Origin: Amoebophrya sp. A120
Taxonomy: Eukaryota > Protista > Dinoflagellata
Assembly: GCA_905178155.1 (NCBI GenBank)
Contig: CAJINV010000005.1
Span: 9,150,874 to 9,214,873 of the forward strand
Reading direction: 5' to 3'
DNA length: 64,000 nucleotides
Shown here: piece by piece, positions 30,912-62,396 of the stretch
How the letters are laid out: each line of letters opens with the position of its first letter
How positions within the stretch are numbered: the stretch's first letter is position 1
Made by a program: the position numbers and the translations under genes
The notes under the pieces: model-generated
Databases searched by the model: none
What the model saw: only the letters and a program-made list of their open reading frames with translations
Told to the model about the DNA's origin: nothing

Positions 30912-32608
30912 ATGCGTGTCACCCCCATCTCGGCCTCCGTGCTGTTGCTGCCGGCCCTCACTGAGGCCACAAAGCTGTCGCTTTTCAAGAGACTAAAGAA
31001 CGAGCCAGAGCTATCCTATATAAAAACGTCCCCGCCCCATAGTCAAGATGATCAACCGGCTAGACAAATCCACGAGTTTTGGTTGTTTCGCATGACAAAT
31101 TTCGACTCGTGGTGTAGTGCTGTCTGAGCTAGTTCAGCAGCATCACAGATCTAGTATGTCACGCTGATTGGAGCATGACAAATCCCAAAACACGACTAGA
31201 AAATGCATCGCATGGGGCTCCGCATGAGAAACATTCTCAGCATGCAGATTTGCATTACAGCTATGGCGTGGGGACGTTTTTCAATACGATAGGAGCCGTG
31301 GGCCTGCTACATGAGCGGTGCGAAGAAGGCCTACATGGGTACGGTGCAGTATCGCAAGAGAAAACTGCTTCACTGTGAAATTGTGATGCATAAAATTCAG
31401 CACAAAGCTATTTGTCTTGCTACACTTCTGTAAGATGTCGCATTTTTGAGAGCGCTTTCTTTCATCCCTTGGGAAGCGCGCATGGCAAATTTTCTGTGTC
31501 ATGTTTTATCCCAATACTTGTGATGCAATTCTTGCAAAATCGTCACAGTAAAAAAGTTTTTTAGTGGGATATGCAGGTCGCAACGAGTGGTCAGAAGTGC
31601 ATGCAGTGGTCGGATGCGGCGAACGATGACAAGATCGCGACATTTAAGCAGGACGTAAGTTTAGTTGATTTAGATAATTTTCGGAAATTCATTTTGCTGT
31701 ACATCACTGATTTAAAATTGAAGTTGAGTCTCTCGGATTTGGATATTAGATGCGTATAGCACCGTCGTTGCAGATCATCCAATAGTGGTGTTTGTTGCTT
31801 GTACCATGTTGAGAGACGCAAATTTCACCACACTGAAAAAACTAAAAAACAGACCCGCGATGAGCCGGCCGGCACCAAGCTGGAGGGTAACTTCTGCCGC
31901 AGCTTTTCTAAAGACGAGCTCCCCTGGTGCTACACCCTGCCGTACCCAGTGCACAGAGTACATCTGGGTCGTGTGGAAATTTGTGTTGCTGATGCTCGTA
32001 TTGGAGGATAGGGGTTTGTACGGCATAACAGCACTAGAAATTATTTTGCGAGGCTCATGACTGCCGATTCATTCGTAACACGCATGACAAAGACATACTC
32101 CCTTGTAGCATGACAAAAATCTGCCTGATCGTTGTCATGCATTACAGATCTTGCTGTATAATTTCAGACCTTGCAGCACAGACCCAGACATATTTGCAAT
32201 GCATATGCCGGACGGCAAGAAGGTCGAGTGCAACGTGCCGGAGTGCCCAACCGATGGTCCGATATGGAGATGGAAAGCTTTTCTGCATGACAAAAGGAGT
32301 CTGTATTGCATGACAATCTAAATCGTACATAGTTATGAAGATGGTGACAGTTGTGATGCTGTATATTTATAATTGCATGGCTTACTCTTACTGCATGTGA
32401 AATTTGTCATGCTCAAAAGTTTTCCATTCCAAACTTTTGGGCCAAGGACTACAACACCGACGAGGTCCAGTCCCCCATCAAGTGCACGGACAAAGATGGC
32501 GCCCCCACCAAGGACTGCGACTGCTCCTGCAACGGCGTCAAGGGCATGAAGAACTCTTTCGTCCAGACCAAGAACGGGCGAGAGGAACGAATCTGCCACT
32601 GCCCGTAA
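30912..32608 (+). CDS. Small secreted kringle-domain protein with a Cys-rich tail
   Basis: Signal-like MRVTPISASVLLLPALTEA; CYMSGAKKAYMGTVQVATSGQKCMQW...GNFCRSFSKDELPWCYT...VECNVPEC (kringle Cys pattern); GT-AG intron 31655-31852; four TIR introns. Confidence 0.82.
31012..31291. mobile_element. Introner-like element, family D
   Basis: Family D TIRs; flanks AGAGC/GGAGC. Confidence 0.9.
31350..31571. mobile_element. Introner-like element, family C
   Basis: Family C TIRs; repeat TGCAG/TGCAG. Confidence 0.9.
31943..32205. mobile_element. Introner-like element, divergent family A
   Basis: Left end degenerate (TACCCAGTGCAC..TCTGGGTC); right end GACCCAGACATATTTGCAATGCATA; repeat TGCCG/TGCCG. Confidence 0.85.
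32261..32436. mobile_element. Atypical inverted-repeat intron (family K), boundaries uncertain
   Basis: GGAGATGGAAAGCTTTTCTGCATGACAAA / TTTGTCATGCTCAAAAGTTTTCCATTCC; interrupts DGP..WAKDY; no clean ATA end or 5-bp repeat. Confidence 0.65.
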
Positions 32609-33802: not shown

Positions 33803-34540
33803 ATGCGGGCCCTCTTGAAGAAGCTCCTGCTGCCGGTCATCCTTGCGATGCTCCACGAGCAGGTGCCAGGCGTGTGTGCGACTACACCGATCACGTTTAT
33901 CGCTAGCGGCATTCTTTTTGGTTTGCCACCTGAAAGGAGGGAACAGACCTTCGATTACGAAACTGCCACCATGAGGGAGGTTCACCTCTGGATCACGGGG
34001 GAAATCGAGCAGCAATGCAACCTATGCATGGCAAATATGTCTGGGCTTGGAACAAGGATGCAACTTGTGACGGTCGTGGTCCTCCCTTTAGACTCTACAT
34101 AAAATATGTTTTGCATGAAGAGCAAGACGAGAGATCCAGCGTTCGCGACGTGGAGAGGGAATTGCTCATGCGGTACGAGCATCAGAGTGCCCGCATGGAA
34201 TCTGTCATGCTAGGGCATGTATGACAGATAAGACATCATAGGCCGTGGGAAATTTGCATGGCAAGTCTCGCAAGTATTCAGACCCAGACATATTTGTATT
34301 TGGTACGCCTGGGTCCTGCGCCGCTGCAACAAGGTATTTTTGCGGGTGACAATCCGCGGACTGCCGTTCTTGTTCGATCCATACACTAGTGGAGCTAACG
34401 CCGAATCTCTTGGCCCCAGGAACAGAATAACCGACCTGAGTCTGACCATAAAGCAGCACATGGAGAGGGACATGCGTCTAGAACCGGTCGTCAAGAATTT
34501 CAACAGGGGAAGGAATCTTCCTCCTCTCATCGTGTATTGA
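33803..34540 (+). CDS. Possible small hypothetical protein
   Basis: ORFs 33740 and 34340 share a frame once element 34023-34305 plus 5 nt (288 nt) is removed; no recognisable domain. Confidence 0.4.
34023..34305. mobile_element. Introner-like element, family A, eroded
   Basis: TATGCATGGCAAATATGTCTGGG...CAGACCCAGACATATTTGTATTTGGTA; flanks CAACC/CGCCT are degenerate. Confidence 0.82.
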
Positions 34541-35375: not shown

Positions 35376-38300
35376 ATGAGGATTCTAGATCAGCATTTGC
35401 AAGACCAGCTTTGGTCCTCCTACCAACGCTCCACCTCGTCATCTTCCTCGTCCTCGCGCCCATCTCGCATGACAAACGGCCACGCCGGGCCGAAAACCTC
35501 CTTCACCGACCAGCAGGACTTCGGTACTGCCCAACCCGCCGGTTTCTCCGAAATCAACGAACAGGCGCAACTCGATTTCTGGAATGGGGACGCCAAGCAA
35601 TTTGAAAAAGACGGGCTGCGTGCACAACTGTACGAGAACAACAATGGGACGACTGGCTCAACGAAGAAAAAGGGGATATTTGACAACATCACGGGCAATT
35701 TCAACGAGTCAAAATCTACTACAACTGGCGATAATTACACAACCAACAACCAAAAGATGAAGGATTACTTCGCCGGGTCGAAATCCAACGGTTTTTTCTC
35801 TTCCGGGAAAGCAGGGGCTTATAAGCCGAATATCAAATGCAAAAATGTCTGGGTCTGGAAGAATGCAACTTGTGATGCTGAGTTTGGATTTCCAAAAAAT
35901 CTGTATTGCATGAGCAGCAATAAAGAGAGCGTAATGCTTGCTACGCGGAGAGGGCCTTTGTCATGCGGAATAGGCATCAAGAAGCCCTCAAGAAATCTGT
36001 GACGCTAGAGGGTATGCATCACAGACATCATGGCTCATGCAAAATGTGCATGACAAGTCTCAGAATCTTCAACAGCCAGACCTTTTTGCACTTGATACGG
36101 AAAATCCAGGAACAAACGGGTCCGGATGTACTGGTAAAGGGAACGGAGATAGGAACGAGAACAGAAGGGGGGTTGCAGTTCACGTACAAAAACAACGACG
36201 CCTTGATGGATTTTCTCACTTCCTCCCCCGCGGATTTGGCAACAGATTCTGTGAAAGATCTTCAGAAATTCTTTCTCGATTTCGAAAACCAAGTGAACCA
36301 GAACATGAACCGGGACAAAATTTACCGGAATAAAATCGACATCGGGAAGATGGTGGGCGGCACTCTGATGGACCAAACCTCCGGGTTGACCCACAAAAAC
36401 CCTCGGCAGGCGATGATGAAGATGGTGACGGATCTAGGGCCGGACGTGATTAAGAAAACGAAGACAACGATGCGGTTTTACAAGGACTTCGGGTTTATCA
36501 ACTGCAAAAATGTCTGGGTCTGGAAGGTCACAACTTGTGATGCTGTCTGCGGATTCTAAAAAAATTTGTAGTGCATGACCAGCAATAGGGGTCGGGTTTG
36601 TCCTAAGGGGAGAGGGCATTTCTGATGCGGTAGAGGTATCGCAAAGCCTTCTAAGTTTCTGTGTTGCTACGGCATGTATCTCGGACATCGTGGCTCATGG
36701 AAAATATGCATGACAAATCTAGAAATCTTCCAGACCCAGACATTTTTGCAGTTGATAGGGTTGTACGCGGTGCAAAAAGTGGGAGAGGTCATCAACATGA
36801 TGTCGCCGGTCACGGTCACCACCGAACCAGCGCCGAACGACGACCAAGTCGCGGAGACGGACGTAATGGGGGAAAAAGCGCTGGATGAGGAGGAGCTGAA
36901 CGGGGTGAAGGTCCCGCCGGCGCCGGACGAAGTGCAGGCTTTGGATTATTACAAGGAAAAATCTTCCCTTTCCAATATACTGAAACGGAAATTTGTGTAG
37001 CATGATTTGTGAGCACAACTCGCGTTGTCATGCTAGAAGGGAAGAGATGCAAGATTGTAGTTCTGGCTGACGTAGTAAAGCCTTGCGTCTTCAGCATAAC
37101 AGGAAGCAACTGGAATTGGGAACAGCATGACAAATTGCCTGCAAACGAGGGAGCAACTGCGTCCATTGGTCTTTTAGCAATACAAATCGACTTGTTTACT
37201 CAAATACAGCAGCAGAAATGTCGTTTTCGGTATGGGGGGGGGATCTTTCCTCACAATATGGATGAGAACGGCAAGCCCTACACGATGAAGATCCCGAGTC
37301 CGCTAGACAACGACAGTCAAGTGAAGGTGGAGTTGAAGGGCGGCTTCAAAGACATCGCAGACGCTCTTTCTGGTCCGATGAAGAGAATCAAAGAAGAGTT
37401 GTATCCTGTGTAAAAACGTTTCCACGCCAGAGTTGCAATGCAAATCTGCACACCAAAAAAGTTTCTCATGTGGATCCCCATGAGATGAAGTATTTTCGAT
37501 TCGTGTTGTGGAATTTGTGATGCTAGAATCAGCTCGATGTGCTAGATCTGTGTTGCTGCTGAACTAGCTAAACAGGATCGCAATTATCTGAGGGCAAAAT
37601 TGTCATGCGAAACAACCAAGGCTGGTGGATTTTTCTAGCAGACTTCCCATCTTTACTATTAATTGGGTGGGGACGTTTTTACACAGGATAAGTTGCGATC
37701 CATGAAAGAAACCGCGGCGGACGGGTTGAAATACCTGTTAGGAGCTATCAAAAAGAAACATCCCCCCTCCCCATATCGAAAACGAAACTTGTGATTTGCT
37801 GTATTTGAGTACACAAATCGACTTGTATTGCTAGAAGGCCATCAAGAGACGCAGTAGCGGCCTTGATTGCAGGCGATCTGTCATGCTGTTTACCACTTCC
37901 AGCTGCCTCCTGTCATGCTGAAGATGCAAGGCCTTCCTGCGCCACCCAGCACTACAGTCCGCCTCTTTTGACTTCTAGCATGACAAAGGTGATTTGTGGC
38001 CACAAATCCGCATCACAGATATTTCCGTTTTCATATTATGGGGAGAAGGGGTTTTCTTTTTGATAGGAGCGGCGAAAGGGTGGATGATCCAGCCGGGCGC
38101 GCTGGCGGCCTGGCCCGCGTACTTCATGCTGTCTGCCTATCGGGCGTATGCGAAGCCGCGGACCCGGATGGCGGCCAGTTGGAAGTTATCAAATGCAAAT
38201 ATATCTGGGTCTGGAAGGGTGCAAGGTTTGTCATGCGCATTTTGCATGACTCCTGACGTCTGTGATGCATGCCCTAGCATCACAGATTTTGTGAGCGCTT

Positions 38301-38763
38301 CCTGATGTCTATACCGCATGAGAAATACCCTCTCGCTGTGGCAAAAACTGGGCCTCTTTATCTGTTCACGCAATACAGATTTTTGTAGTATCACCAGTCG
38401 TTTTGTATGTCGAGTCATTCAAGAGGTGCCACGCGAACAAATAGGCATGAATTTAGCATCTCCGGCTGGTAGAGCAATCGGCTACCGAGGTACGTCAGGG
38501 GGCGTAGCTACATCAATCAATCAATCCAAATGCAGCATCACAATTTGCATTCTTCCAGACCCAGACATATTTGCAATGCATAGAAGTTGGGTGCGAAGAT
38601 CATGGTGGATTTCATGACGCCGTCCATCCGGCAAACGGATTTGTTTGACATCAAAAAGTGGAACTGCAAAAAGTTTGGGGCGATGGGGAAGGTGGAGAAA
38701 GCGGGGAATCAACTCGAAAATCTGGCGAGGAGCGCGGTACTTAAGGGTTGGGTTGATTTGTGA
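35376..38763 (+). CDS. Hypothetical protein interrupted by six TIR elements
   Basis: Continuous frame from ATG 35376 to TGA 38761-38763 after removing each element plus one repeat copy; no family recognised. Confidence 0.78.
35831..36097. mobile_element. Introner-like element, family A
   Basis: Family A TIRs; flanks CCGAA/CGGAA. Confidence 0.9.
36496..36757. mobile_element. Introner-like element, family A
   Basis: Family A TIRs; repeat GGGTT/GGGTT. Confidence 0.92.
36947..37258. mobile_element. Introner-like element, family B
   Basis: Body similar to 3443-3752; repeat TGGAT/TGGAT. Confidence 0.9.
37402..37690. mobile_element. Introner-like element, family D
   Basis: TATCCTGTGTAAAAACGT...ACGTTTTTACACAGGATA; repeat AGTTG/AGTTG. 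Confidence 0.93.
37746..38065. mobile_element. Introner-like element, family B (opposite orientation to 3443)
   Basis: TATCAAAAAGAAACATCCCCCCTCCCCATA...TATGGGGAGAAGGGGTTTTCTTTTTGATA; repeat GGAGC/GGAGC. Confidence 0.92.
38187..38582. mobile_element. Introner-like element, family A (opposite orientation to 4269) with an internal insertion of about 130 bp
   Basis: Repeat GAAGT/GAAGT; 396 bp against about 265 bp for other copies. Confidence 0.9.
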
Positions 38764-38884: not shown

Positions 38885-40345
38885 AATAGCATGTGCACTG
38901 TGGCTCGAGGTCCCACCTTAGTTCTAGTTCTTTTTGGTCTTATGTGCTGAACAGGGGAGAGTCTGCAAGTGCAGCTTGGCTTGCATCTGCTTTTTTCTGC
39001 GGGCAAATTTTGGACGAAAACGAGAGTCCCCCCGGCCCGCAGCCACAAAACGGGAAAAAATACCTGTAAAGGCGAAGAGGTCCTCACTACTCAAATTCCG
39101 ACTCCCGCCGTGGCAGCAAAAGCAGCCTTCTGTGGTTGCTTCTTTTTGCTGCTGTTTTATCCACTACACGAAAATGGCCATAGCGTGGGCCCGCGGCTCT
39201 CTTTTGGGTTTTTGGGACGTTCTAGCTCTTTTGGGTCTTGAGTGCTGAACAGGAGCGGAGTCTGCAAGTGCAGCTTGGCTTGCGTCTGCTTTTTTCTGAA
39301 AGCAAATTTTGGACGAAGACGAGAGTTCCCGCGGCCCGCGGCCACAAAATGGGAAGAAATGTCCGTAAAGGCAGTTTCGCCACTACCCAATAAACTCCGA
39401 CTCCCGCCCTGGCAGCAAAAGTAGCCTTCTGTGGTTGCTTCTTCTGCTGCTGTTTTATCCACTACACGAAAATGATCATAGCGTGGGCCCGCGGCTCTGT
39501 TTCGGGTTTTTGGGACGTTCTAGTTCTTTTGGGTCTTGAGCGCTGAACAGGAGCGGAGTCTGCAAGTGCAGCTTGGCTTGCGTCTGCTTTTTTCTGGACG
39601 CGAATTTCGGACGAAAACGAGACTCCGCTCGGCCCGCAGCCACAAAACGGGAAAAAAATGCCGTAAAGGCGGTTTTGCCACTACTCAAATTCCGACTCCC
39701 GCCCTGGCAGCAAAAGAAGCCTTTCGCGGTTGCTTCTTTTTGCTGCTGCTTTATCCACTACAAAAAAATGAGCGTAGCGTGGGCCCGCGGCTCTGTTTCG
39801 GGTTTTTTGGACGTTCTAGTTCTTTTGGGTCTTGAGTGCTGAACAGGAGCGGAATCTTCAAGTGCAGCTTGGCTTGCATCTGCTTTTTTCTGGACGCGAA
39901 TTTTGGACGAAAACGAGACTCCGCTCGGCCCGCAGCCACAAAACGGGAAAAAAATCCGTAAAGGCGGTTTTGCCACTACTCAAATTCCGACTCCCGCCCT
40001 GGCAGCAAAAGAAGCCTTCTGTGGTTGCTTCTTTCTGCTGCTGTTTTATCCACTACACGAAAATGAGCATAGCGTGGGCCCGCGGCTCTGTTTCGGGTTT
40101 TTGGGACGTTCTAGTTCTTTTGGGTCTTGGGTGCTGAACAGGAACGGAGTCTTCAAGTGCAGCTTGGCTTGCGTCTGCTTTTTTCTGGACGCGAATTTTG
40201 GACGAAAACGAGACTCCGCTCGGCCCGCAGCCACAAAACGGGAAAAAAATTCCCCAAAGGCGGTTTTGCCACTACTCAAATTCCGACTCCCGCCCTGGCA
40301 GCAAAAGAAGCGTTCTGCGGTTGCTTCTTTTTGCTGCTGTTTTAC
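38885..40345. repeat. Tandem array, about 296-bp unit, about 5 copies
   Basis: TAGCGTGGGCCCGCGGCTCT at 39181, 39479, 39775 and 40070; the first copy is degenerate. Confidence 0.95.
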
Positions 40346-41307: not shown

Positions 41308-43744
41308 ATGACACCGAAGGGCATCTTAGCCTTTCACCCCTCCATCACTTTTCGCAACCCGCAAAACCTCGTCCACGTGCACCTACAAGAGTCCAACGCT
41401 TTTTATGCACAAAGCAAAGTATCGTACTGGAACCACGACTTCAAATTATCGCATGACAAAGTCCCGCAGCATGAAAAACGAAATTTGCAATGCTGATTTG
41501 ACAGCTCAGGACAGAGATAATTTTTTGCCACGCGTGAAGATTTCCATCAGTGGTAGTGCGATTCTGTTTTTGCATTGTCCATACCCTAGATCCAGCAACC
41601 AACAACCCGGATCCGTGCAAGATCTACTGGGACGCGCTGTACGACTTGAAGGGGGAAAAAGTGCTGAAATCCGACCAAGTTGCGATCGGCGGCGAGTGGC
41701 CCTGGTTTTTTCACGTCTGCAAGGAGAAACTGGCCACTCCAAAAAGGTTCACGCAGCTAGTAACTTACCTCAACCCGTCCGAGCAGGAAAACCTATCGGT
41801 CGGATTGGACGAACAAGGTTATTTGAACAACAACCGGAATCCGATGCAGCATATGAAATGCAAAAGTGTCTGGGTCTGGAAGAATGCAAGATTTGTGATG
41901 CAGGTTTTCCATGACGATGACCCATGAGGTCTGGAATGCGAGACCCAGCATGACAGGTTCTTGGAGGTCTCTATCATGCCTTTCCTGCATGAGAAACTCC
42001 CTCTCAACTTGGTCAAAAGCGGACAGCTTTATTTGGTACTCACGCAACACAGATTTTTGCATCATTCAGATTTAGCATGACAAGTTCTAATCTTCCAGAC
42101 CCAGACACTTTTGCATTTGATACAGCAGAAGCTGCAGGACGTGGTTTGCGACGGCCAGCAGTGCTTCATCGACGGCGATTTGCATCCGATACGGGATATG
42201 CATTGCAGAGATGTCTGGGTCTGGATGAATGGAAGGTTTGTCATGCAGGTGTTACATGACCCATGGGGTCTGGAATGCAGCACCTAGCATGGCAAATTCT
42301 GTGAGATCTTTATCATGCCTATCGCTATCCTGCATGAGAAACCCCCTCTCAACTTGGTAAAAAAGGACGGCTGTTGGTAATCATGCAACACAGATTTTTT
42401 TGCATGATTCAGACTTAGCATGACAAGTTGCCATCTTCCAGACCCAGACATATTTGCACCCGATACGGGAGGAACCGGTGGCGGATTTGAAGTGCCCCGG
42501 GGCGGAGGATCCCGGGCCCCACGCGTTAGCCGCGGCGGAGAAGTTATCAAATGCAAAAATGTCTGGGTCTGGAAGAATGCAAGATTTGTCATGCTCGGCT
42601 AGCATGACTCTTAACCTCAAGTCTGTCATGCACGTACCCAAGAGCCTCGCTTTTCTGTCATGCGGAAACGCAGTTTGTCATGCAGAATAGAATACACCGA
42701 TCACCTCAGAAACTTGTCATGCTGGAACGGCAATTGCGGTATCCTAATCATCCGGCAAACAGCATCACAAGTTTCCAGACCCAGACATATTTGCAATGCA
42801 TAGAAGTGCTACTTTAACAACCCGAAGTACGCCTGCAAGGAGGGAAAACAGTTCAAACGGTTCTACGTTGACCTGAAAAACCTGGACGCGGGAGACCGGG
42901 CGGAGGCGCACGATTTGGAGGATCTGGAGGCAAAAAAGGAGGAGAAACAGGACTCCGAATTAGGCGGGGATTCGCAGGCGGCGGAGTTGATGACGGTCAG
43001 GAGCTACGATGCGGGGGAGTGCAAGTTGAAGTCGGTGATTTACGACGAGGAAAACGTCTACTACATATGACAGTGCACAACTCCCCCTCCCCCTCATTTG
43101 TCATGCAAAACTCCGAATCCAGTCGCTACCTCATGGGACTGCTTGCATGACAACTTCCGGAAGCCGAAACAGCACTACATTGGGCATACAAATTTGTCAT
43201 GCATTGGCTCCGCGTGTGGTTGTGTGTGTATTGCTATTCATGCAATACAAATGAGGAGGAGGTGCTGGGGTTGTGCACTCTCATACTACGGGTGGTGCAA
43301 CAAGAAGTCGTTGGAGAAGAAGGCGAAAACGTTCACGTTATGCATTGCAAATGTGTGTAGTCTGGTACGGGACTTGTCATGCTAGTCTGGCATGACTCTG
43401 AACTCTGCCTTGCGTGGCCACGAAATAAAGGCTCACGTGTCTGTCATGCAAAAGCATAGCTTCTGACTCTGTTTCTGATGCGAAACAGACTAACACAAAG
43501 CCATACCAAAAATCTGTCATGCTTGACGGCGCATTGCAGTGTGCTTCTTTGTTGCTTGTTATGTAATGCGTCACAACTTTCTGGGCCCAGACATATTTGC
43601 ATTGCATACACGTTGCGCATCACCAACGGCGCGGAGGAGAACCTGATCGGGTCGGCGCAGGCGACGCTGTACGACCGGGGAACGTTAGGAAATTCGTTTC
43701 AATTCGCGTTGAATGAAAGCGCGGGGAGGACAAAGTTTTTGTAG
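41308..43744 (+). CDS. Hypothetical protein interrupted by six TIR elements
   Basis: Continuous frame MTPKGILAF...DPCKIYWDAL...EKCYFNNPKY...SAGRTKFL stop after element removal; no family recognised. Confidence 0.75.
41404..41583. mobile_element. Introner-like element, family F-like, eroded
   Basis: TATGCACAAAGCAAAGTATCGTACT...AGTGCGATTCTGTTTTTGCATTGTCCATA; flanks CTTTT/CCCTA are degenerate, but removing 180+5 nt keeps the frame. Confidence 0.72.
41852..42122. mobile_element. Introner-like element, family A
   Basis: Family A TIRs; repeat CAGCA/CAGCA. Confidence 0.92.
42197..42465. mobile_element. Introner-like element, family A
   Basis: Family A TIRs; repeat CGGGA/CGGGA. Confidence 0.9.
42545..42802. 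mobile_element. Introner-like element, family A
   Basis: Family A TIRs; repeat GAAGT/GAAGT. Confidence 0.92.
43066..43285. mobile_element. Introner-like element, family I
   Basis: TATGACAGTGCACAACTCCCC...GGGGTTGTGCACTCTCATA; flanks CTACA/CTACG. Confidence 0.88.
43339..43608. mobile_element. Introner-like element, family A (diverged)
   Basis: TATGCATTGCAAATGTGTG...CAGACATATTTGCATTGCATA; repeat CACGT/CACGT. Confidence 0.88.
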
Positions 43745-47839: not shown

Positions 47840-50800
47840 ATGGCTGTAGCATCGACCCTCCTCTCATCTGCGACGACTTCCTGTAGCGCTGAAGTTTCTT
47901 CCTCCACTGCTTCCGCTGAAAAGCCCAATAAGCAGCATCACGATTTGCAGGAACTACAACAGAAAATCAGCAAGATGGAAGTAGAACATCAAAAATCTTC
48001 TTCTTCTGCGGACAAGATGATACAAGTTGTAAATCGCGAACAACATCAAACCGCGCCGGGTCCTCAAAGCACCACGGCGACAACGACAGTATCCAAGCAG
48101 AACAAGAAGGAATGGAAGAAGAAACAGAAGGACTTGCAGGGGAGGCTGAACGAGGCATGCAGGAAGAGGAATGTAGCGGATGGTCTTGACAACAAACGAA
48201 ATCAACGCCAGCATTCCTGGACGGAAATCCAGGCAGTTTATGAAGACTGGATGGAAAACAATCCGGATGTGTATGACTTGCTCAGATGTTTTTACAATCT
48301 CAAACGTTACAATAGAGTCTGGATTTGGTCTTGCATGATGAGCATGACAGACTCGGACAGCATTCCGCTTTCTGCAATACAAATTTCCCCAGATTGTAGT
48401 GCGATTGGGGACCACTCCGGGACTTGGCATGCGCAAATTCCTATGAGAGTCGGCTAGATAATGCACTTCCTGCATCACAGATTTGCATATTGTGTCGAAT
48501 AACGTTTGAGATTGTAAAAACACCTGAGCAGGTTATAATGTGCCGAAACCGAGCTGCCTGTTCGCGCAAACCATGCAGGGAGTTGTGGAAGAAATCGTGT
48601 TGATGGTGGATAATTTTTCGTCTAGCAGTAGTAGTTCCTGCATGACAAAGACAAACCAACAGCAGCAAGCCGAAGAAGTGACGAAGATCGCCTTTTTCAT
48701 CCAAAAGGTGTTTGAGGAGGCCAAGAAGCACTTTTTCGCCTCCAATCCCAACGCAAACGCGGGCAACTCGAATTTGAAAAATCTCGAGTCCTTGTTGTAC
48801 TTGCTCTTCCGCAGTTATTGCGCGGAAATGAAGATCAGGAAGATGATGATGATGAATTTTCCTGTTGCTGGGGAAGAAGAAACGAGCAGTAGTGCTGCTG
48901 GCCGGGTATCGTCTTCGGAGCAGGTTTCGCTCATTGACAACGCGTTGGAGCAGTTTATGACATATTTCGGAACGTCGACCAATAAGAGCTGCAACACAGA
49001 GACAGAACGAGAGCCAACTTCTCATGCGACAAGCGATACAAGTAAAAAAGCCACGACGATGAAGCCGGTGCACCAGGTGAAGCTGCGCACTTTGATCCCG
49101 ATCTTCGAGATATCGCAAGAAAAAACTGTTTCACTGTAAACTTGTAATGCAGAAAATGCATCACGAAAGTGTTTGTCTTGCTACACATGCAAGACAGGCG
49201 ATTTTTAATGGTGTTTTCCCTCAGGATCCTCGCATGGCAAATTTTCTTTGTAATGTGTAGCGAACTTGTAATGCAAAACTTGCAAAATCCTGACAGTCAA
49301 GCAGTTTTTTCTTGCGATATGAGATGTTTGCGTTGTCAGGGGGTTTTTCCGTCGGGGATAGTAGTAGAACTACAACTACACTACACCAAGAAGCTCCTTC
49401 TGCTCCGTCCAGTACAACTTCTGCTGCACACGACACCAGCAAGAACACCAGAAACTACTTCGCGGAAGCGGAATTATTCTATGAGCAGCAAGTGGCGAAG
49501 CGGTTTTTGCAACACCAAGATCCAACCGCTAGTGGGTCATCGACTACAACATCAACTGGTCCCTCCGGGTACATGAACACGGCGTCGATTATCATGCACT
49601 CGGTGACCAGAAATTCTTCTGTGCAAATTAACGACGACCAGAAAAATTGGGAGTGGCTGTTTCTCTTCCGGATCGAAACGTTACTGAACAGCAAGGCAGA
49701 TGAAAATAAGTTGGAAAAGCTGCAAACCCTCTTAGCCGAGATGGCGAAGGTTTGCCCGCGGCTGGGATTGGTCAAAGCCGACGAGGAAGTAACTTCGGAT
49801 AACACGACCATCCACCTAGACCGCGGAATGGGCGCCGCGACGACGGGAACAAATGTAACCGTGAAGTCCAAGCTTTTGGATTTACTCAGAAAGTTTAATT
49901 ACAGAATTCTGACGGATAAATCCATTATATCTGACGAAACGGGGATCTGTGATTCTACAAATCTCAAGCTGCAGCGCAAAAACCTCGTTTCAAAGGGGGA
50001 ATTGGAGAAACTGCTGCGGCTGATAGAGCGGTTAGCAACGGAACAACAGCAGCAGACGTCTTTTGCAGGTTTTAGCACGCCAAGTAGCTCGCCGGCACCC
50101 TCGGTGGTTTCGGAACAGAATGGAGCGGCGGGTGAGAAAAAAGTTGGAGCGGCTGTTGTTCCAGGAAGTGTAGTTCCGCCTCCTCCTGCTGCTGCAACGG
50201 ACACCTCCCGCGTGAGAAGTTCCAATTGTTCAGAGGAAGCGCCGGGTGCTGGTCCTCGTAACAGCAGCCACAACTCCCTCACCCTTCTCGAGCGCTGGCA
50301 GCTGTTCCGCTATGCGGTTTTGGAGAAGCAATTTTTGCACGAAGGGGCGAACGATCAATACGACTGCGTCCTAGACGGCGCGAATATCGGCCACCACTCG
50401 CAGAACCACGACAGGGGCGCTTTTTCGCTGGAGCAAATCGACCTGGCGATGGAGGAGTGCAAGAAACTGGGGAGGAAACCTCTGGTGATCCTCCGGGAGC
50501 ACTGGTGTCGGGACAGAGCGAAGATTTTATTGAAAGCGGAGCACGAGAGGACCACAACTACTGCTTCGAATATTAAACTTCTAGACGACAAGGGCCACAA
50601 AGCGGCGAAAAGGAGAAAGCTCGCGCCGTTGGGAGCGGATAATATTAACACTACTAGCGGGATGAAAATGTGTCATCCTCTTTCGCGGGACCAAGGATCC
50701 TCGGTGAGCTCGAGGGATTCAGGATCAGCAGCGGATAATTTAGGACGACTCGATTCATCCGATGTAGTACCGCGACAGGCATCTTCATCTTCCGTGTCCT

Positions 50801-51948
50801 CTTCATTCAAATCTAGCGAGGATTTGGTTCGATCCTCGCCCGAAGGTGGCACCCCGCGCAGTGAAGGAAATCAAGAGATGCAGGAGGAGAATCGAACCCG
50901 AGAAGAAGATTTACCTGCTACTGCCAATGGTACTGCTGTTCTTGATCAAGAAAACTTAAACTGCGACAAGAAGAACATCCAGCACCCGACCGCCGCCTAT
51001 CTGCAAAGCCTGCAGAACCGCAAGCGCCCGTTGGATCTGGACAGCTGGCACGAACTACCCAGGAAGTGGTATGAGAACAAGGAGCTGCTGATTTCCCCGA
51101 ACAAATTGAACGACGACTGGGTGTTTCTCTACACGGCAATTAAAATTTGCGCGCTGAAGAAGACTAGTCACGAAAGGGAAATAAAGATAAACAGCATGAC
51201 AAATATTAATTCGCCTAAAGAAACTACGCCGCCAAAGGAGCTCTACCTGATCTCCAACGATTTGATGCGCGATCACTTCTTCCGCATGCGGCACCACCCC
51301 AGTCTGCTGCAGTGGAGGGACCAACATTTGTGTAAATTCAACGTGTCGGGGAAAGTGCTGGTGTTGCATCACCAGGAGCAAAAACGAACGGGCAGTGCAA
51401 TACAAACGGCTGGTGAATCAAGCGAAATCAAAATACCTGCAGAAGAAGTAGGTGCTGAAACAGTTAGGGAGAAAGACGAGGTTCTCAAAGTTGTAGAGAG
51501 TAAAATCGTTGCGGACTACAGTTCCGCGGTAGTGGAGTTGATTACGCCTAAAAACTGGAGTGCGGAAATACAACGGATTGATAAAGCAACGGCCCAGGAG
51601 GAGGACAAAGACCACCAGCAGGACCACGAGGAGAATAAAACCAGGGACTACGACTGCAACAAGCGCGGCCACTGCTGGTTTTTCCCGTTTCTGCCTTCTT
51701 CACAGGTGACGGTCTCGCAAGACCCGAGACTCCGAGCGGCGAGTAACAATAATGCGGGTGGAAGTAGTTCTTGTGCAGGCGGGCACCTCCAGCAGTCGGG
51801 GGAAAGGCAGAACAAGGAATTTTCTGTGAAGGACTGGAGATGGGTGGTGGCAGAATATGCTGGAGGAGGTGAGAATGAGAAAGGAAATGGAAGCAGTGAT
51901 GTAGAAAGAGCTTCTGCGCGTAAGAATGAGACGCTTGATGGCAACTGA
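47840..51948 (+). CDS. PRORP: Protein-only RNase P (NYN metallonuclease domain) with long low-complexity insertions
   Basis: YDCVLDGANIG..F..QI; PLVILREH; ISPNKLNDDWVFLYTAI; LISNDLMRDHFF; QWRDQH; WSAEIQ..HCWFFP; upstream VKLRTLIPIF resembles the PRORP PPR-region motif. Two TIR introns. Confidence 0.88.
48272..48537. mobile_element. Introner-like element, family J
   Basis: 38-bp TIR TATGACTTGCTCAGATGTTTTTACAATCTCAAACGTTA / TAACGTTTGAGATTGTAAAAACACCTGAGCAGGTTATA; repeat ATGTG/ATGTG. Confidence 0.9.
49111..49319. mobile_element. Introner-like element, family C
   Basis: Family C TIRs; flanks CGAGA/TGAGA. Confidence 0.92.
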
Positions 51949-53730: not shown

Positions 53731-54070
53731 TTAGCTGCCTGGCATGCCAGCTAATTTTTGGACAGGTTGCCCCAGGGCTTCAGACGGATCATGCAGGGCG
53801 GTGCCCTCTGTGGCATAGTGGCTTTTTTTGTATGTTCCTCCCTGCCTGGTGGAGCTGGTGGCAGATTCCGGGGTGAGGTTGCCGACTGAGAGTGACTTTT
53901 GAGAGCATTGCACCGAGGTGAAAATTATAGCAGAGTAGCGAGTGCTAGTCGTGTGAGCCTCGAGCGCGTGAGTGTGGGCAAACAAAAGCAGGCGGCCCGC
54001 CATTCTGATCAGCGAGTGTCAAACCAAAGGGAAAGAGCGCGTCAACCCCTGCGCACGGGGCAAACACAAG

Positions 54071-57000
54071 ATGGCCACAACCAACACCATATCCTATGTA
54101 AGAACGTCTCCATGCAGCTTGTGATGCAAATCTGCATGCTGGAAACATTTCGCATGCGGAGCCCCATGAGAAGTAATTGCCAGTCGTGTTCCGGAATTTG
54201 TCATGCTCCAATCAGCACCATATACTACATCTGTGATGCTGGTTTACTAGCGAAACAGGACCACACTAGCACGAGGTCAAACTTGTCATGCGCAAGATCC
54301 AATGCTTGTTGATTTGTCTAGCAGATTTCCCATCTTCACTATAGCGTGGGGACTTTTTTCCACAGGATACACCAGTTTCGATCTCCTCCCGGGCCTCGGG
54401 ACCATGCCAGGCTTTATCCTGTGCAAAAGTATCGTACTCGTAGTAATCGCAATTATGCAATACAAATCTTTTTCCTAAGGTGAGTCAGCATTACAAATTC
54501 TATTTCTCATGCTGAGGGAATTTGTCATGCGATTTCTACTTAGTACGATACATTTGCAATGCACAGGCTTCGTGAAAGAGCGATACGAGCACCGCCCCGT
54601 GAAGCACAAACTCAATCTATTACGCGCGAAGTGGGATCGGGTTCTGGCGGAGAAGGTAGTATAATTGTGAAATTCGACGGTGGATCACGAACACGGAGTG
54701 TACCTCTTCTGCTGCGTGACAAGAAATGCAAATTACAAAGTTTGCAACCGGGTCAACAGCACCCTCAGTCGTTCTTGTGATTTTTCAATTGCAAATCTCT
54801 CAGTCATCTGCTATCGTATTTATCAGGAGCCGTCAGTCCCGCCGAGTCTGGTTCACAGCAAGTACAAATCCGCGGGTCTGACCGACTATTCTCTGCAACA
54901 GTATCGTACTCGTATTGCAGTCCTGCATTACAAATTTGTTTGTGAAGGTAAACTCGCATTACAAATTTCATTTCATCTCATGCGGAGGAAATTTGTAGTG
55001 CATTTATACGAGTGCGATACTTTTGCAATGCATACCGACGACAATGCCGGGGAGTTCAGTCCTGCGAAGATGCGCGCGTCCTTGAAATATGCATTGCAAA
55101 TATGTCTGGGTCTGGAAGAATGCAGGAGTTTGTCATGCAGATTTTGCATGACCCATGAGGTCGGTGATGCATGCCCTAGCATCGGAGACTTTGCGAGGGC
55201 TTTCTCATGCTCGTACCGTATGAGAAATGCCCTCTCCGCGTAGCAAAAATGACACCACTTTTGCTGTTCATGCAATACAGACTTTATGTAGAGTTCAGAG
55301 GTAGCATCACAAGTTGCATCCTTCCAGACCCAGAGACTTTTGCATTTGATATGAAAATGCAGGACAGCCGGAACAAGGTCATTTTGCCCGGGAATCTAGT
55401 TTTACCGGTGCAAAAACAGGATACAGCGAAATTCTATTTCCACGGAGCTGCGAGTGCGAGTGCGACGACTCGTCCGACCGCCCTGTCTGACGGAATGCTG
55501 CTGTCGTCGTTCCAACACGGAGGTGGACAGATGAATCCGCACGACGACTATTATCCACCAGCCTCCGGCGGAACAAGCTTTCAGTCCTCTACGGGGATGA
55601 AAAAGACCACGAGCGTGAACAAATTCGAGAACAAATTCGATTACGACAAAAACGTCGATTTAAACCGACGGGCCTCGCTCCCGACCTACCACAGAGGTGG
55701 TGGTAGTGACGGGCTGATGAAAATAAAAAACACCAGACCCGCAGCGCATCTTCCGCCAAAACCGCTTTTCGGGTCTTCCTCCTCCTCTTCCTCGTCGAAC
55801 CTAAAAAGAACTTCTTCGCCGAAGAACGTGGTAAAGACAGCTTCTGGAACAACTACATCTGCACCAGGCATGACAGCCAGTCCGCTCCTGTTTACTATTC
55901 CAAATGCCGCTTCCGCCTCGCCCGGGAGCCCCGTGAGAACGTCAAGACAAATGAATTACACAAACACCCGGATGAACTACAACTACGGCTCTACAACTGT
56001 CTCCGATTTCTCCGCGAAGATCCACTCCGAGTATCAGTCTTTGATGAAGTCTATCAAATGTAAAAATATCTGGGTCTGGAAAAATGGAACTTGTGATGCT
56101 AACTTTGGACTCTAAAAAAATCTGTATTGCATGACCAGCAAGAGGAGCCACATTTGTGCTACGCGAGGAGGGCATTTGTCATGCGGAAATGGCATCAGGA
56201 AGCTTTCCAAAAGTCTGTGATGCTGGGTCATGCATTACAAGCACCATGGGTCATGCCAGACAAGCATGATAAGCCTTGCGGCGCATATCCTTGCGGGAAC
56301 GTATTGAGCCCTTCAAGTATATTCGCCCTACTTTTGCATGCGCGGCGTGGGGGTTTGGATTTATTGTCGGTCTGCCATTTGCTCTCATTCGGTCGTGGGG
56401 CCTCACAGAAAGATATAGAAATCGTGCTCGTGCTGGGCGGGGAAAAATTGCATATGGGGCAGTAGATGTAGTTGTAGTCTGCATAGATCGTCATTGTGAC
56501 TATTTCCCTTCTAGTTTCCTCACAAACCCTGGTAGATTTTTATGTAGAATTACTTATGCAGAAGTACACTCGGAAGAATGGCGCACCGCAGAGAGAGCAG
56601 GCGAGAGAGCGGACGAGCGAGCGGCATGCGCGAGCAGCATGAGCGAGCAGCATGAGCGAGCGGCGCCGCGGCAGCGCCCGCGAAGCGAAAGCCTACGGGG
56701 CCCGGCCCAGAAGCAAAAAAGAACAAACCCGCGGGGGCCTCATGCCACTCATCCTCGGCAAGCCGGAAGGCCGCAGCCCCGGCAGTAGCAACAGTGGCGG
56801 CAGTAGTAGCAGTGCACTATCTAGATACTAGCTTAAAAGGGTCGTAGCGCAAAGAAAGAGGGGCAGTCCACAGAGGCTTTTTTGCATGGGGTCCACTGGT
56901 CACCGTTTCGCGCGAGCCATTCGGTGGACGACTGACCCCGCCCCATTTAGATAGCCGCTATGCGGGAGCTTTGTAAAAACTGGACTTCGTCCGTCTCCGG

Positions 57001-60000
57001 GTGGCGTGCCCGGGGTTCAGTCTAAATAAATTTGCCCGGGAAAATACCACGCAGCGGAGCAATCAGGCCTACTCGTAGGCCAGTCGGGGTCTACCCTTTC
57101 CCCACGTCGTCACATGTGGTTATTGGGTTCAGTTGGCATGTGTCAGGGGGTTCCTGTCTTTGGCATTTCCCGGCTCCTCCCATGGGTTCACTTCGACGAT
57201 TGCTGCCGGGGACATTCATATGCAGTCAGCCGGATGCCCGTGACCTGGCTCGTACTGCGAATGCAGCTGGATGACTGTGACCTGGCTCGTCTTCGATGGG
57301 CAGGCGGATGACTGTGACCTGTCTCGCCCATCAAGATCCCTAATCCGTAGCTCCTAGATGTTGCCCGGCCCGCGAATGACTCCAGGGCAGCCGGATGGCC
57401 GTGACCTGGTTATAAAGGGCTTCGTCGATCGATTGTGCCACTAGGGCCTTGTGTTCCGGCTACTCCGGATCGCAATCGATGGAGGGCGGGACCTGCACCG
57501 GCGACAGGCGCTATCCAACCAACCAACCAACCAACCAACCAAGCCTTCCACTCTTCCAGACCCAGACATTTTTGCACTTGATAAAGTCGCTGCTGCCCAT
57601 GCGCGCGGCGCTGGCAACCGGGACTCCCTTGGAAGCGGTGTGTACCGCGAGTCCGGTTATCAATTGTAAAAATGTCTGGGTCTGGAAGAATCCAACTTGT
57701 CATGCTGATTTTGGATTCTAAAAAAATCTGCATTGCATGAGCAGCAAAGAGAGTCCAAGTTTCGCTACACGGAAAGAGCATTTGTCATGCGGTATAGGCA
57801 TCAGGAAGCCCTGACAAAATCTGTGATGCTAGGGCCTGCATCACAGACATCAGGAGTCATGCAAAATGAGCATGACAAACCTGGCAATCTTCCAGACCCA
57901 GACATTTTCACATCTGATACCGGTTTTGGTGAGAGCAGCTGGCGGTGTAGTAACGAGCCCAAAGGGGGAGGAAAATCAAGGTGCGGCGGTAGCACCAACA
58001 ACAGCCGCGGGTTTGCAGCAGCAGCTGCACCAGATACAGCAGCAAAACGGAACACTTGTTTCCTCATCATCATCTACTTCGCAGTATCGGGCTTCCAGCA
58101 GCCCGCCGCTGCTGTTTAACCAGAACAGCGGGCCGGCCACCAGCAAGGGAACGATTAGTGGGACGGAACGGGAAGTTGCGACGGGGTTCGGTACAGCGAT
58201 GACGAAGAGCAATTTCAACCTTATTCCCCCCAGCAAAGCAGCATCTTCTGCCGGAACTGATTTCGCAAAATCAAGGCTGCCGTATTGGGAGAGGTTGGTT
58301 AAGAGTCACAGCTCCGGGAATGTGCGGGTAGTTTCAGACGGAAATGAGGACAATTCGCATGGTTTATTTGAAACGATGTTGAAAACAAATAGAGAAAAAG
58401 CGAGTTACAAGAACGTGAACAAACACAACTACCACCATTTGATCTCGCACATCCAAGACGAGGGCATTTTCCGGCCACCGAAACTACAGGGGATTTTGGA
58501 CATCAGCGGGATTTCGCCGGCGTCTGTTCTTGCTGGTGGTGGAGGGCACGGTAGGTTTTTTTGATGCCGTCGGAGGTTTTTCTCTTCGTGGACGACCTTC
58601 AGAACATTTCCGTACTGCTTTATCGGCCCGTGTGGCCGAACGGGTTGGTTGAGTTTTTCGTGGTACGAGGTTTTACCTCCAGCCCTCTAGGGTAAAACCT
58701 TCTTGAAAGGAGGTTTTACCCCAGTACGAAACAGGCTGCTGTGGTGGCTTTTTCGAGGTTTTACCCCTGGGGCAGGTGTAAAACCTCCAGCCCTCTAGGG
58801 TAAAACCTTCTTGAAAGGAGGTTTTACCCCAGTACGAAACAGGCTGCTGTGGTGGCTTTTTCGAGGTTTTACCCCTGGGGCAGGTGTAAAACCTCCAGCC
58901 CTCTAGGGTAAAACCTTCTTGAAAGGAGGTTTTACCCCAGTACGAAACAGGCTGCTGTGGTGGCTTTTTCGAGGTTTTACCCCTGGGGCAGGTGTAAAAC
59001 CTCCAGCCCTCTAGGGTAAAACCTTCTTGAAAGGAGGTTTTACCCCAGTACGAAACAGGCTGCTGTGGTGGCTTTTTCGAGGTTTTACCCCTGGGGCAGG
59101 TGTAAAACCTCCAGCCCTCTAGGGTAAAACCTTCTTGAAAGGAGGTTTTACCCCAGTACGAAACAGGCTGCTGTGGTGGCTTTTTCGAGGTTTTACCCCT
59201 GGGGCAGGTGTAAAACCTCCAGCCCTCTAGGGTAAAACCTTCTTGAAAGGAGGTTTTACCCCAGTACGAAACAGGCTGCTGTGGTGGCTTTTTCGAGGTT
59301 TTACCCCTGGGGCAGGTGTAAAACCTCCAGCCCTCTAGGGTAAAACCTTCTTGAAAGGAGGTTTTACCCCAGTACGAAACAGGCTGCTGTGGTGGCTTTT
59401 TCGAGGTTTTACCCCTGGGGCAGGTGTAAAACCTCCAGCCCTCTAGGGTAAAACCTTCTTGAAAGGAGGTTTTACCCCAGTACGAAACAGGCTGCTGTGG
59501 TGGCTTTTTCGAGGTTTTACCCCTGGGGCAGGTGTAAAACCTCCAGCCCTCTAGGGTAAAACCTTCTTGAAAGGAGGTTTTACCCCAGTACGAAACAGGC
59601 TGCTGTGGTGGCTTTTTCGAGGTTTTACCCCTGGGGCAGGTGTAAAACCTCCAGCCCTCTAGGGTAAAACCTTCTTGAAAGGAGGTTTTACCCCAGTACG
59701 AAACAGGCTGCTGTGGTGGCTTTTTCGAGGTTTTACCCCTGGGGCAGGTGTAAAACCTCCAGCCCTCTAGGGTAAAACCTTCTTGAAAGGAGGTTTTACC
59801 CCAGTACGAAACAGGCTGCTGTGGTGGCTTTTTCGAGGTTTTACCCCTGGGGCAGGTGTAAAACCTCCAGCCCTCTAGGGTAAAACCTTCTTGAAAGGAG
59901 GTTTTACCCCAGTACGAAACAGGCTGCTGTGGTGGCTTTTTCGAGGTTTTACCCCTGGGGCAGGTGTAAAACCTCCAGCCCTCTAGGGTAAAACCTTCTT

Positions 60001-62396
60001 GAAAGGAGGTTTTACCCCAGTACGAAACAGGCTGCTGTGGTGGCTTTTTCGAGGTTTTACCCCTGGGGCAGGTGTAAAACCTCCAGCCCTCTAGGGTAAA
60101 ACCTTCTTGAAAGGAGGTTTTACCCCAGTACGAAACAGGCTGCTGTGGTGGCTTTTTCGAGGTTTTACCCCTGGGGCAGGTGTAAAACCTCCAGCCCTCT
60201 AGGGTAAAACCTTCTTGAAAGGAGGTTTTACCCCAGTACGAAACAGGCTGCTGTGGTGGCTTTTTCGAGGTTTTACCCCTGGGGCAGGTGTAAAACCTCC
60301 AGCCCTCTAGGGTAAAACCTTCTTGAAAGGAGGTTTTACCCCAGTACGAAACAGGCTGCTGTGGTGGCTTTTTCGAGGTTTTACCCCTGGGGCAGGTGTA
60401 AAACCTCCAGCCCTCTAGGGTAAAACCTTCTTGAAAGGAGGTTTTACCCCAGTACGAAACAGGCTGCTGTGGTGGCTTTTTCGAGGTTTTACCCCTGGGG
60501 CAGGTGTAAAACCTCCAGCCCTCTAGGGTAAAACCTTCTTGAAAGGAGGTTTTACCCCAGTACGAAACAGGCTGCTGTGGTGGCTTTTTCGAGGTTTTAC
60601 CCCTGGGGCAGGTGTAAAACCTCCAGCCCTCTAGGGTAAAACCTTCTTGAAAGGAGGTTTTACCCCAGTACGAAACAGGCTGCTGTGGTGGCTTTTTCGA
60701 GGTTTTACCCCTGCCCTTCAGGGACGTCCGTTCCATGCGTGATTTGTGAATCAGAGCATTTCCTTTGTGATATGCGTCTTTGTCTTTTCACGGCAACAAC
60801 ACAAACTCAAAACAGCTCAACCTCCGCCGCATTTGCAGCAAGCAACGCCAGTAGATCATTCCACCACCGGGCGGCTGTCGGAGAAAGTACGGCAAAAATT
60901 TGGGACGGATGTGGATCTTTTACCGTCTTCTGCACACCAGCAGGAACCCAGTCCTAGTACAGCCGTGGTTCCAATTCTAATACGGGATAGCAGGGGAGCT
61001 GCGACGAGGAGCAGCAAAACAGCAGAACAACACGCACGAAAGACTTCTGTTGTCCGCGGTACCAGCAGCCGACGACCCTCGAAACCCCCTCCGGATCTTC
61101 ATGGTAGTAGAGCGGGTGTTGCTGGTGTTAGTAGCAAGGCGGGGTCGCCAGCGGATCAAATTCTTCTTGCCACTTCTGGAGGTGGTGGTTTTCAGGTAGA
61201 GCAGAGCAGCAAGCGCAGCAGCAGACGAAGCCCAGTGGAGGAAGAGCATTTTGATATAAACCCCGCAGCGGATAAAGATGATGGCGCTCAACAAGAAGAG
61301 GAAGAACTACCACCCGTGCACCCACCACTTCCGCCAACGAAACGAACTTCTTCGGCTTCTCGAAGATCTGGAGCAACAAGAAACCAAGTTAACTTCAGCA
61401 CCAGTGTGTCACGGAGAGCTGAGCTTGCGAAGGAGCGGATTCTGCAGGAATTCCTGGCAAACAAACCGAAATACATTTCCCCCATGTCGCAACCACGGAG
61501 TTCTACTTTGATGCGAGAACAACATCAAAACAGCGTAAGCCAAAGTAAGATGTCATCGACTAATTCCGCGTCACTCGTCGAAAACAGCAGTGCGAAGCAA
61601 ACCATGGAAACCGCGATGGCAGATTTATCGGCGATCGAGTTTGCGCAGCCTTCGTGCGTGGTACCTGCTTCTGCTGCTGCTGGTGGTGTCTCGTCCCCTA
61701 TCGCGAATCAAGATAAACAAAATCACGTTGCTATCCTGTGCAAAAGTATCGCACTCGTATAACTGCAAGGCTTGCATCACAAATTTTTTTCTGAAGGCAA
61801 ATCAGCATTACAAATTTCATTTCTCATGCTGAGGAAATTTGTAATGCATTTATAAGAGTGCGATACTTTTGCAGTTCATAGGTGCTAGTGCAGCTGCAAG
61901 GAGTAGAAGGAGGAGGATGCGGATCTCACCGCTCGTATCATGTGTAAAAACGCCCCCACCCCATAGTCAAGTTGGGAACTTGGCAACACAAATCCAGAAG
62001 TTTTGGGAGCCATGCATGACAAGTTGCAGTCCGTAGTGTAGTTCAGCAGGTTAGCAACGGAAACCGCATCACAAATCCATCTGCTCATCCTGTTTTCAGC
62101 ATTACAAATACCAAAACACGGCTCAAAGTGCCTCTCTTGGGTCTGCGCATTACAAATGTTCCTGTAGTCGCAAATCTGCATTACAACTCTGGGGTGGGGA
62201 CGTTTTTACTCAGGACATCTCGCGAAACACTACAACAACGAGGTGCATTTGTTTGATGAGGAAGATGAAAATAATGCTGCTGCCGTGAACATCGCGCATG
62301 ACAAACAGGAGAAGGACAGGAAAATAGACTCCGACCACACCGGTGGCACGATCACTTGGAACAGCAAACTGTCCGAAATGACGAGGAGTATGTTGC
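54071..62396 (+). CDS. Large Ser/Thr-rich low-complexity hypothetical protein; probably continues beyond the window
   Basis: Continuous frame from ATG 54071 through 8 TIR introns and predicted GT-AG introns 54599-54826 and 58551-60815, ending at a family-B left TIR at 62397. It could instead be two genes split at 58564. Confidence 0.62.
54090..54369. mobile_element. Introner-like element, family D
   Basis: Family D TIRs; repeat CACCA/CACCA. Confidence 0.9.
54415..54565. mobile_element. Introner-like element, family F
   Basis: Family F TIRs (ends ACA); repeat GGCTT/GGCTT. Confidence 0.9.
54887..55034. mobile_element. Introner-like element, family F
   Basis: Family F TIRs; repeat CCGAC/CCGAC. 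Confidence 0.9.
55088..55351. mobile_element. Introner-like element, family A (opposite orientation to 4269)
   Basis: Family A TIRs; repeat TGAAA/TGAAA. Confidence 0.92.
56052..57583. mobile_element. Introner-like element, family A, split by a 1.26-kb insertion
   Basis: Left TIR at 56052, right TIR ending 57583; repeat AAGTC/AAGTC. Confidence 0.9.
56278..57540 (+). mobile_element. Retroposon-like insertion with a (CCAA)n tail
   Basis: AAGCCTT duplicated at 56271-56277 and 57541-57547; 3' tail TATCCAACCAACCAACCAACCAACCAACC; no TIR and no reverse transcriptase motifs recognised. Confidence 0.72.
57658..57919. mobile_element. Introner-like element, family A
   Basis: Family A TIRs; repeat CCGGT/CCGGT. 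Confidence 0.93.
58666..60713. repeat. Tandem array, 108-bp unit, about 19 apparently identical copies
   Basis: Unit GAGGTTTTACCCCTGGGGCAGGTGTAAAACCTCCAGCCCTCTAGGGTAAAACCTTCTTGAAAGGAGGTTTTACCCCAGTACGAAACAGGCTGCTGTGGTGGCTTTTTC. Confidence 0.98.
61732..61880. mobile_element. Introner-like element, family F
   Basis: Family F TIRs; flanks GTTGC/GGTGC. Confidence 0.9.
61936..62217. mobile_element. Introner-like element, family D
   Basis: Family D TIRs (ends ACA); flanks GCTCG/TCTCG. Confidence 0.9.

Follow-up and report, generated by a model that had tools for sequence, protein, structure and literature searches.

A retroposon-like insert inside a family A introner of Amoebophrya sp. A120, and how the enlarged intron may be removed

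How is an intron without canonical borders recognized once an insert has made it several times longer? The question is raised by a locus of Amoebophrya, a parasite in plankton, in a stretch of 64,000 nucleotides from Amoebophrya sp. A120 (contig CAJINV010000005.1, positions 9,150,874 to 9,214,873; hereafter the window), where an introner of a repeated family, here family A, is split by a 1263-bp insert. Transposons landing in introns are a well-known and ordinary event, and the observation, which is real, is a new example of this known kind. The locus is valuable as a natural probe of the unsolved non-GT-AG splicing in Amoebophrya, for which no U1 has been found and a new protein subunit has been proposed in its place (PMC7789003; statements on this and the other papers cited by accession refer to excerpts of their texts). 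The A120 introner signature given there consists of inverted repeats that read TAT, 7 nt, AAA, direct repeats of 3-5 nt and non-canonical borders. We consider it probable that a 262-bp introner at this locus holds a 5'-truncated copy of an element without long terminal repeats (non-LTR), laid down by target-primed reverse transcription, and that the long allele is spliced by its ends alone, which would pair co-transcriptionally.

Short elements crowd the window, with a TAT start, an ATA end, complementary arms and flanking 5-bp direct repeats. A scan for them returned 45 rows, or 43 elements after removal of two overlapping rows; TAT-N7-AAA stands at 35 of the 43 left ends and 40 of the 43 right ends, across unrelated families, and each listed element retains its own complementary arms (16-25 of 25, by the scan filter). 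Family A contributes 18 of the 43 elements with both ends, and these measure 251-271 bp in 16 cases (modal length 262 bp, four copies), 396 bp in one and 1532 bp in one. This longest copy is the subject here. It occupies 56052-57583 on the + strand between a left AAGTC at 56047-56051, the target duplication of the introner, and a right AAGTC at 57584-57588. Its left terminal inverted repeat (TIR; TAT, 7 nt, AAA) lies at 56052-56089 and its right one at 57546-57583, with 36 bp outside the 7-bp duplication described below; the two arms, 38 nt each, are 87% complementary. Both the TIRs and the AAGTC repeat are thus intact, as a preliminary description made from the sequence had stated, and the element has the features of A120 introners throughout: TAT-N7-AAA arms, a direct repeat (AAGTC), a repeated family and removal from RNA at non-canonical borders. 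Elsewhere in the window, 470-685 holds a family A copy, not among the 45 rows, that is apparently internally shortened or chimeric (one orientation is matched over the first 166 bp, and the other arm type over the last 60 bp), 32179-32203 is an isolated family A right arm, and 34022-34305 is a diverged copy of about 280 bp with no clean direct repeat in the scan.

The insert (56278-57540, + strand) is likely a 5'-truncated non-LTR retro-copy. It is bordered by a perfect 7-bp duplication, AAGCCTT, at 56271-56277 and 57541-57547; within 54000-59000 this heptamer occurs at those two sites only, and the chance of a 7-mer matching at both junctions is about 4^-7. The insert ends in a (CCAA)7 tail (57515-57542), which shares its final two letters with the start of the right duplication and is the only run of at least two CCAA or TTGG units in the window. 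Ahead of the tail, 57227-57414 contains four copies of a 27-nt core spaced by 37, 37 and 87 and holding GTGACCTG (at 57240, 57277, 57314 and 57401), and a 13-bp tandem repeat lies at 56615-56664 in the purine-rich part. No second copy of the insert was found in the window by self-BLAST, and none of 14 families of direct repeats and 18 inverted pairs provided terminal repeats in the insert. An open frame on the + strand, P0001 (56273-56788, 171 aa), runs without a stop through 169 codons, counted from the first base of the insert (P = 0.002 against 2000 block shuffles, the test having been picked once the frame had been seen); as the longest frame it is ordinary (P = 0.10), and it may be the cut end of an open reading frame, or chance.

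Deleting 56278-57547, that is, the insert and one copy of the duplication, leaves an element of 262 bp, exactly the modal length of family A, which is 62-80% identical to 15 paralogs and aligns with them without extra letters at the insertion site. A conserved CAT(G/C)A lies 49 positions from the 3' end of this emptied element, as in 8 of the 15 paralogs (48-50 in 11 of 15); the distance would be 56 with both AAGCCTT copies kept and 42 with none. Because the emptied length and this spacing both match the paralogs, exactly 7 bp were duplicated and the insert is later than the introner. The insertion point lies 36-43 bp inside the right end of the outer element, so the outer right arm was spared. 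The preliminary description had likewise reported a family A copy split by a 1263-bp insert, with the AAGCCTT duplication, a (CCAA)n tail and internal repeats at about 57240-57410, and in all of this it was accurate.

One RNA-like contig joins the flanking exons across the whole element. Reads were compared over 54400-58650 for runs X3, X4, X11 and X12 (X1, X2, X5-X10 and X13 were left out; shares for X9 and X10 were 0.08 and 0.07). In X3 and X4 the exons have depths of 5-8, and over the unique central part of the insert (56388-57239) the depth is 0. One X4 contig of 1792 nt carries the joints 54653-54825 (GT..AG), 54880-55034, 55082-55352, 56046-57584 and 57652-57920, and the focal joint, 56046-57584, skips 1537 nt. 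Along the + strand this gives an upstream exon at 55352-56046, whose end, given the AAGTC repeat, may be placed anywhere up to 56051, a short middle exon at 57584-57652 that begins with the right AAGTC and belongs to the 74 nt between two elements, the next family A introner at 57658-57919 (262 bp, CCGGT repeat), and a downstream exon at 57920-58550 followed by a GT donor at 58551. The contig has no other letters over its three listed pieces (90, 695 and 631 nt), and its record positions leave no spare letters at the joints (105 = 56+49; 69 = 69). Shifting the focal border through the repeat brings up GT in register 2 and AG in register 3 but the pair in no register, and a GT-AG reading of the intron was therefore rejected.

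The joined exons also make sense as protein. The 1590 nt of the X4 contig that lie on the stretch are stop-free in one frame, and their 529-residue translation is found letter for letter, including MKSLLPMR, in the deposited protein P0004, whereas unspliced RNA would meet a stop 23 codons after MKS begins. P0004 is an unnamed A120 product of 1510 aa without a Pfam family, the one deposited A120 protein that exon 55357-56049 matches, at 100%. The public gene model already treats the focal element as an intron; since that model may rest on related RNA data, it is not independent evidence. The earlier claim that the exons stay in frame as MKS-LLPMR, and its condition that they be joined in mRNA, are borne out to this extent, the joint being seen in one of four runs, X4, which is taken as RNA by guess, while an intron of about 1.5 kb was right in substance and needs one correction: the removed piece measures 1537 nt, as one AAGTC leaves together with the 1532-bp element. 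As the RNA contig is without the whole 1537 nt, the ends alone are likely sufficient for splicing of the long allele, and the exact exon match suggests that the cells that gave the RNA carried this allele. Given that they did, a 262-bp introner grown sixfold is probably still excised with single-base precision, which implicates the ends rather than length or inner structure. In the same gene, the following intron (58551-60814) starts with GT, and P0004 resumes at about 60815; this intron holds a perfect tandem array of 108 bp x 18.9 (58675-60713, 100% matches), which may be very young or an assembly effect. In X11, a run of raw RNA reads from 2026 under the same species label, a family A-like arm matches 57658-57706 (132 reads) and nothing matches the host-gene exons, so the label may cover another strain with the same family. 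Reads of X11 and X12 fall on family A only and not on exons, and both runs are therefore uninformative on the host gene.

For the insert itself, retroposition is the likely origin, judging by its structure. A simple-repeat tail stands directly against the duplication, with a two-letter overlap, and the duplication is short (7 bp, most being no more than 20 bp), both marks of non-LTR copies. Long interspersed nuclear elements (LINEs) of the RTE clade have a microsatellite tail that overlaps the target by 1-2 bp, and duplications of 7-15 bp that start with A behind a CAA-type tail (PMC6007223), and the insert resembles RTE, CR1 and L2 LINEs and their short interspersed nuclear elements (SINEs) in its simple-repeat 3' tail, 1-2-bp target overlap and A-starting 7-bp duplication; the (CCAA)n unit is absent from the rows of the tail table in that paper that we examined. 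The preliminary description expected other copies sharing the 3' end, and so far one has appeared: X3 and X4, two of the four runs compared, each have a contig that aligns with 57254-57506 and differs from it at 7 of 253 letters (97% alike). Because the exons match exactly, we read these contigs as another, shorter copy with the same 3' part. In both runs 39 unaligned letters precede the match and 21-25 letters extend toward the tail, and the match ends 5' at 57254, as it would in 5'-truncated retro-copies. Several other identities were tried and rejected. Rfam gave no tRNA, 5S or 7SL head for a SINE at E up to 5 (56000-57700); its four matches, considered as evidence of a ribozyme, tRNA or SINE head, are all far under the gathering score, and its MIR8622 match is the hairpin of two neighbouring arms. 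A solo LTR or a DNA transposon does not fit an insert that ends GC..CC, not TG..CA, and is without terminal inverted repeats. Reverse transcriptase or transposase families occur in none of the 24 long frames of the window.

Predicted folds show both the strength and the problem of a simple hairpin model. When the element is folded alone, the terminal stem is predicted to keep 33 of 38 pairs (mean 0.84 with the insert and 0.85 without it). The predicted pairing energies are -43.7 kcal/mol for L0-R0, -43.6 for L0-R1, -43.2 for L1-R1, the focal element's own arms, and -49.5 for L2-R1, so that the focal right arm would pair better with the left arm of the next introner, 74 nt away, than with its own partner; neighbouring copies are thus predicted to offer stronger wrong hairpins. 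In a growing transcript the correct stem is predicted to hold at 3' ends 57600, 57657 and 57680 and to be lost at 57700 and 57760. Since neighbouring arms are interchangeable and the equilibrium fold is wrong, pairing alone does not select the junction; the RNA shows the correct joints, and so either the pairing is settled while transcription is under way, which we consider more likely, or the ends are recognized as sequence by proteins.

The order of events that we propose starts from a family A element placed in an exon between AAGTC repeats, followed by the later insertion that duplicated 7 bp at 36-43 bp inside its right end and left the outer arms whole, both of which the anatomy itself displays. 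A LINE RNA, perhaps of RTE type, would have annealed to the nicked target through the AA of its (CCAA)n end and primed a reverse transcription that halted early. In the RNA of near-identical cells the exons appear joined, with GT-AG in no register. During transcription the left arm would wait about 1450 nt for its own right arm and would already be paired with it when, 74 nt further on, the left arm of the next introner emerges, so that cutting would be committed before the stronger wrong hairpin forms.

Both parts of this proposal meet contrary evidence. On splicing, the claim that removal depends on the paired ends rather than on length agrees with a stem predicted to survive the insert and with the joint in RNA, but it needs amending, as the predicted equilibrium fold favours the wrong arms: together with the next introner it has 0.5 own versus 29.4 wrong pairs, and 10.7 versus 19.8 once the insert is left out. 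Machinery that reads each end as sequence, for example proteins on the TAT-N7-AAA arm beside the direct repeat, with RNA pairing incidental, would explain the same anatomy and is a genuine possibility, if one we hold somewhat doubtful. It suits arms that pair as well between copies as within them, equilibrium folds that mispair here and in one of the two other clusters tested, a TAT-N7-AAA common to unrelated families, and the protein subunit proposed for the missing U1 (PMC7789003). That each element keeps its own complementary arms, and that the correct stem is predicted to come first as the transcript grows, speak for pairing instead, although neither point excludes the protein reading, as transposition alone would keep the arms alike. 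The cluster concerned, 41852-42802, consists of three adjacent family A copies with gaps of 74 and 79 nt, and its equilibrium fold swaps the arms of the second and third. The RNA evidence has its own weak points: X3 and X4 are one sample (S2, study P2), taken as RNA by guess, and the focal joint appears in one of four runs, X3 having both exons on separate contigs and X11 and X12 not covering them. An insert-free allele would yield the same joint on this reference. The RNA could therefore stem from cells whose introner is the empty 262-bp form, in which case the long allele would be recent or polymorphic in the culture and perhaps poorly or never spliced. We think this unlikely. The perfect duplication does imply a young insertion, no RNA piece among the matches listed crosses the insert junction, and X3 and X4 differ in sample from the best-matching runs, X1 and X2 (S1, P1). 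Yet the X4 contig, without a differing letter, indicates cells of the same or almost the same strain; contigs with an end at 56277 show 3-4 other letters and more depth than the mRNA, which makes them paralog-like rather than this allele; and an unspliced allele would truncate the 1510-aa protein.

Counter-evidence on the origin of the insert is of a similar kind. No reverse transcriptase, endonuclease or parent LINE was found in the insert or the window, and retroposition, for which the tail, the 7-bp duplication and the tail-target overlap argue (PMC6007223), is on that account graded likely rather than established. The insert differs from the LINEs of that paper in offering no reverse transcriptase or endonuclease sequence by which to place it, and in the absence of the T-stretch found about 10 nt upstream of the duplication at RTE targets: 56255-56270 has no T run, although the stretch is described as only slight, and for some animal RTEs (PMC6007223). 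The second copy's 3' end is visible only to 57506, the comparison having excluded the tail region 57507-57551. P0001 fared poorly as a LINE protein, with no Pfam match and no relative among 1997 longer and 244 similar-length candidate proteins; its 148 pattern matches in metagenome contigs left none confirmed, and P0002 and P0003, considered as relatives, proved spurious repeat-protein matches made of short weak matches summed over repeats. The insert might thus have been copied in at the repair of a staggered break, or be a fragment of another element with a (TTGG)n 5' end on the minus strand. A P0001 without protein homology and of unremarkable length suits such an origin, as does a 3' stem-loop that does not rise above shuffles in six of six folds (z -0.26 to 0.38); it is improbable nonetheless, because a simple-repeat end directly against an overlapping duplication is seen twice in one window, the shorter copy has the same 3' part and the insert is without terminal repeats. 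Far less probable again is an assembly artefact, or removal at the DNA level like that of the internal eliminated sequences of ciliates. The repeats of the window could confuse assemblers, and TA-bounded inverted-repeat elements are reminiscent of the ciliate sequences. A chimeric join, however, would not make a precise 7-bp duplication; in a stretch of which the insert makes up 39%, runs X1 and X2, which may be the assembly's own source, contain 0.80 and 0.76 of the words; and a GT-AG intron is missing from the joined contig too, as it is from mRNA.

The window holds a second nested insert. The 396-bp family A copy at 38187-38582 contains a 131-bp piece (38393-38523, + strand) that has an (ATCA)n tail, is accompanied by a 3-bp duplication, ATC, and shows no sequence relationship to the 1263-bp insert. 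Tailed inserts are therefore present in 2 of the 18 family A copies, a count that covers introners only, and it is on these two copies that the suggestion of the preliminary description, introners as safe harbours for other elements, would have to rest. Like the focal insert, this piece is in + orientation and near the right end, 56 bp from it; deleting element 38187-38582 leaves one + frame open. A broader reading, which we offer tentatively and think somewhat unlikely, is that U1-less introner splicing is first-come end-to-end pairing during transcription, blind to kilobases of cargo, that TIR introners serve as landing pads for retroelements, and that some of what has been published as 'non-LTR and LTR-derived introners' in A120 are passengers in TIR introners, not introns that retrotransposons made. 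If it were true, loci with a stronger wrong hairpin and a LINE copy that delays the right arm by 1270 nt would be ready-made tests of mechanism. Apart from these elements, the window has long-period tandem arrays at 28535-29852 (160-bp unit), 38921-40344 (295 bp) and 20703-21032 (109 bp), and frames at 642-3206, 26678-28243 and 49294-51948 with P4-type ATPase families, ArsA ATPase and a below-cut-off match to protein-only RNase P.

In a search of titles and abstracts, with subscription papers mostly outside its coverage, we found no account of introner-nested inserts or of (CCAA)n-tailed elements in dinoflagellates. The closest system is that of the A120 introners themselves, with which the focal element shares TAT-N7-AAA arms, 3-5-nt repeats, non-canonical borders, repeated families and a host gene that is a deposited A120 gene (PMC7789003). 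The intron analysis of that study kept lengths of 40-1000 bp, so that a 1537-nt case fell outside it, although the longest A120 intron is given as 35 kb, and the excerpts contain no account of nested inserts (the word 'nested' occurs 0 times). For A120, PMC12130899 describes TIR introners of about 250-320 bp, with a 5-bp duplication and TA ends for family 38; it treats secondary insertions into introns as a known effect, filtered out, and ascribes some A120 introners to non-LTR and LTR elements. Here, in contrast, it is the TIR element that supplies the intron borders, and the retroelement-like piece is carried within it. Among 50 of the 58 A120 rows of its Dataset S2, three end as non-LTR and seven have a retroelement peptide match; five of these seven (families 4, 5, 6, 12 and 16, of which family 6 matches RTE-BovB) have TIR models of 209-317 bp and TE_end values of 4067-7165. 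Taking TE_end as alignment columns, we infer that nested cargo is common in A120, and if nesting is common the classification of A120 introner families with retroelement matches would change. A more distant parallel is offered by the nonconventional introns of Euglena (PMC12501133), which are likewise non-GT-AG with complementary end motifs, and in which a 5-bp change in the middle had no effect. They belong to another lineage and carry a CAG/CTG motif, a signature without long transposon arms or target duplication, and the change in the middle, 5 bp there, is 1270 bp here.

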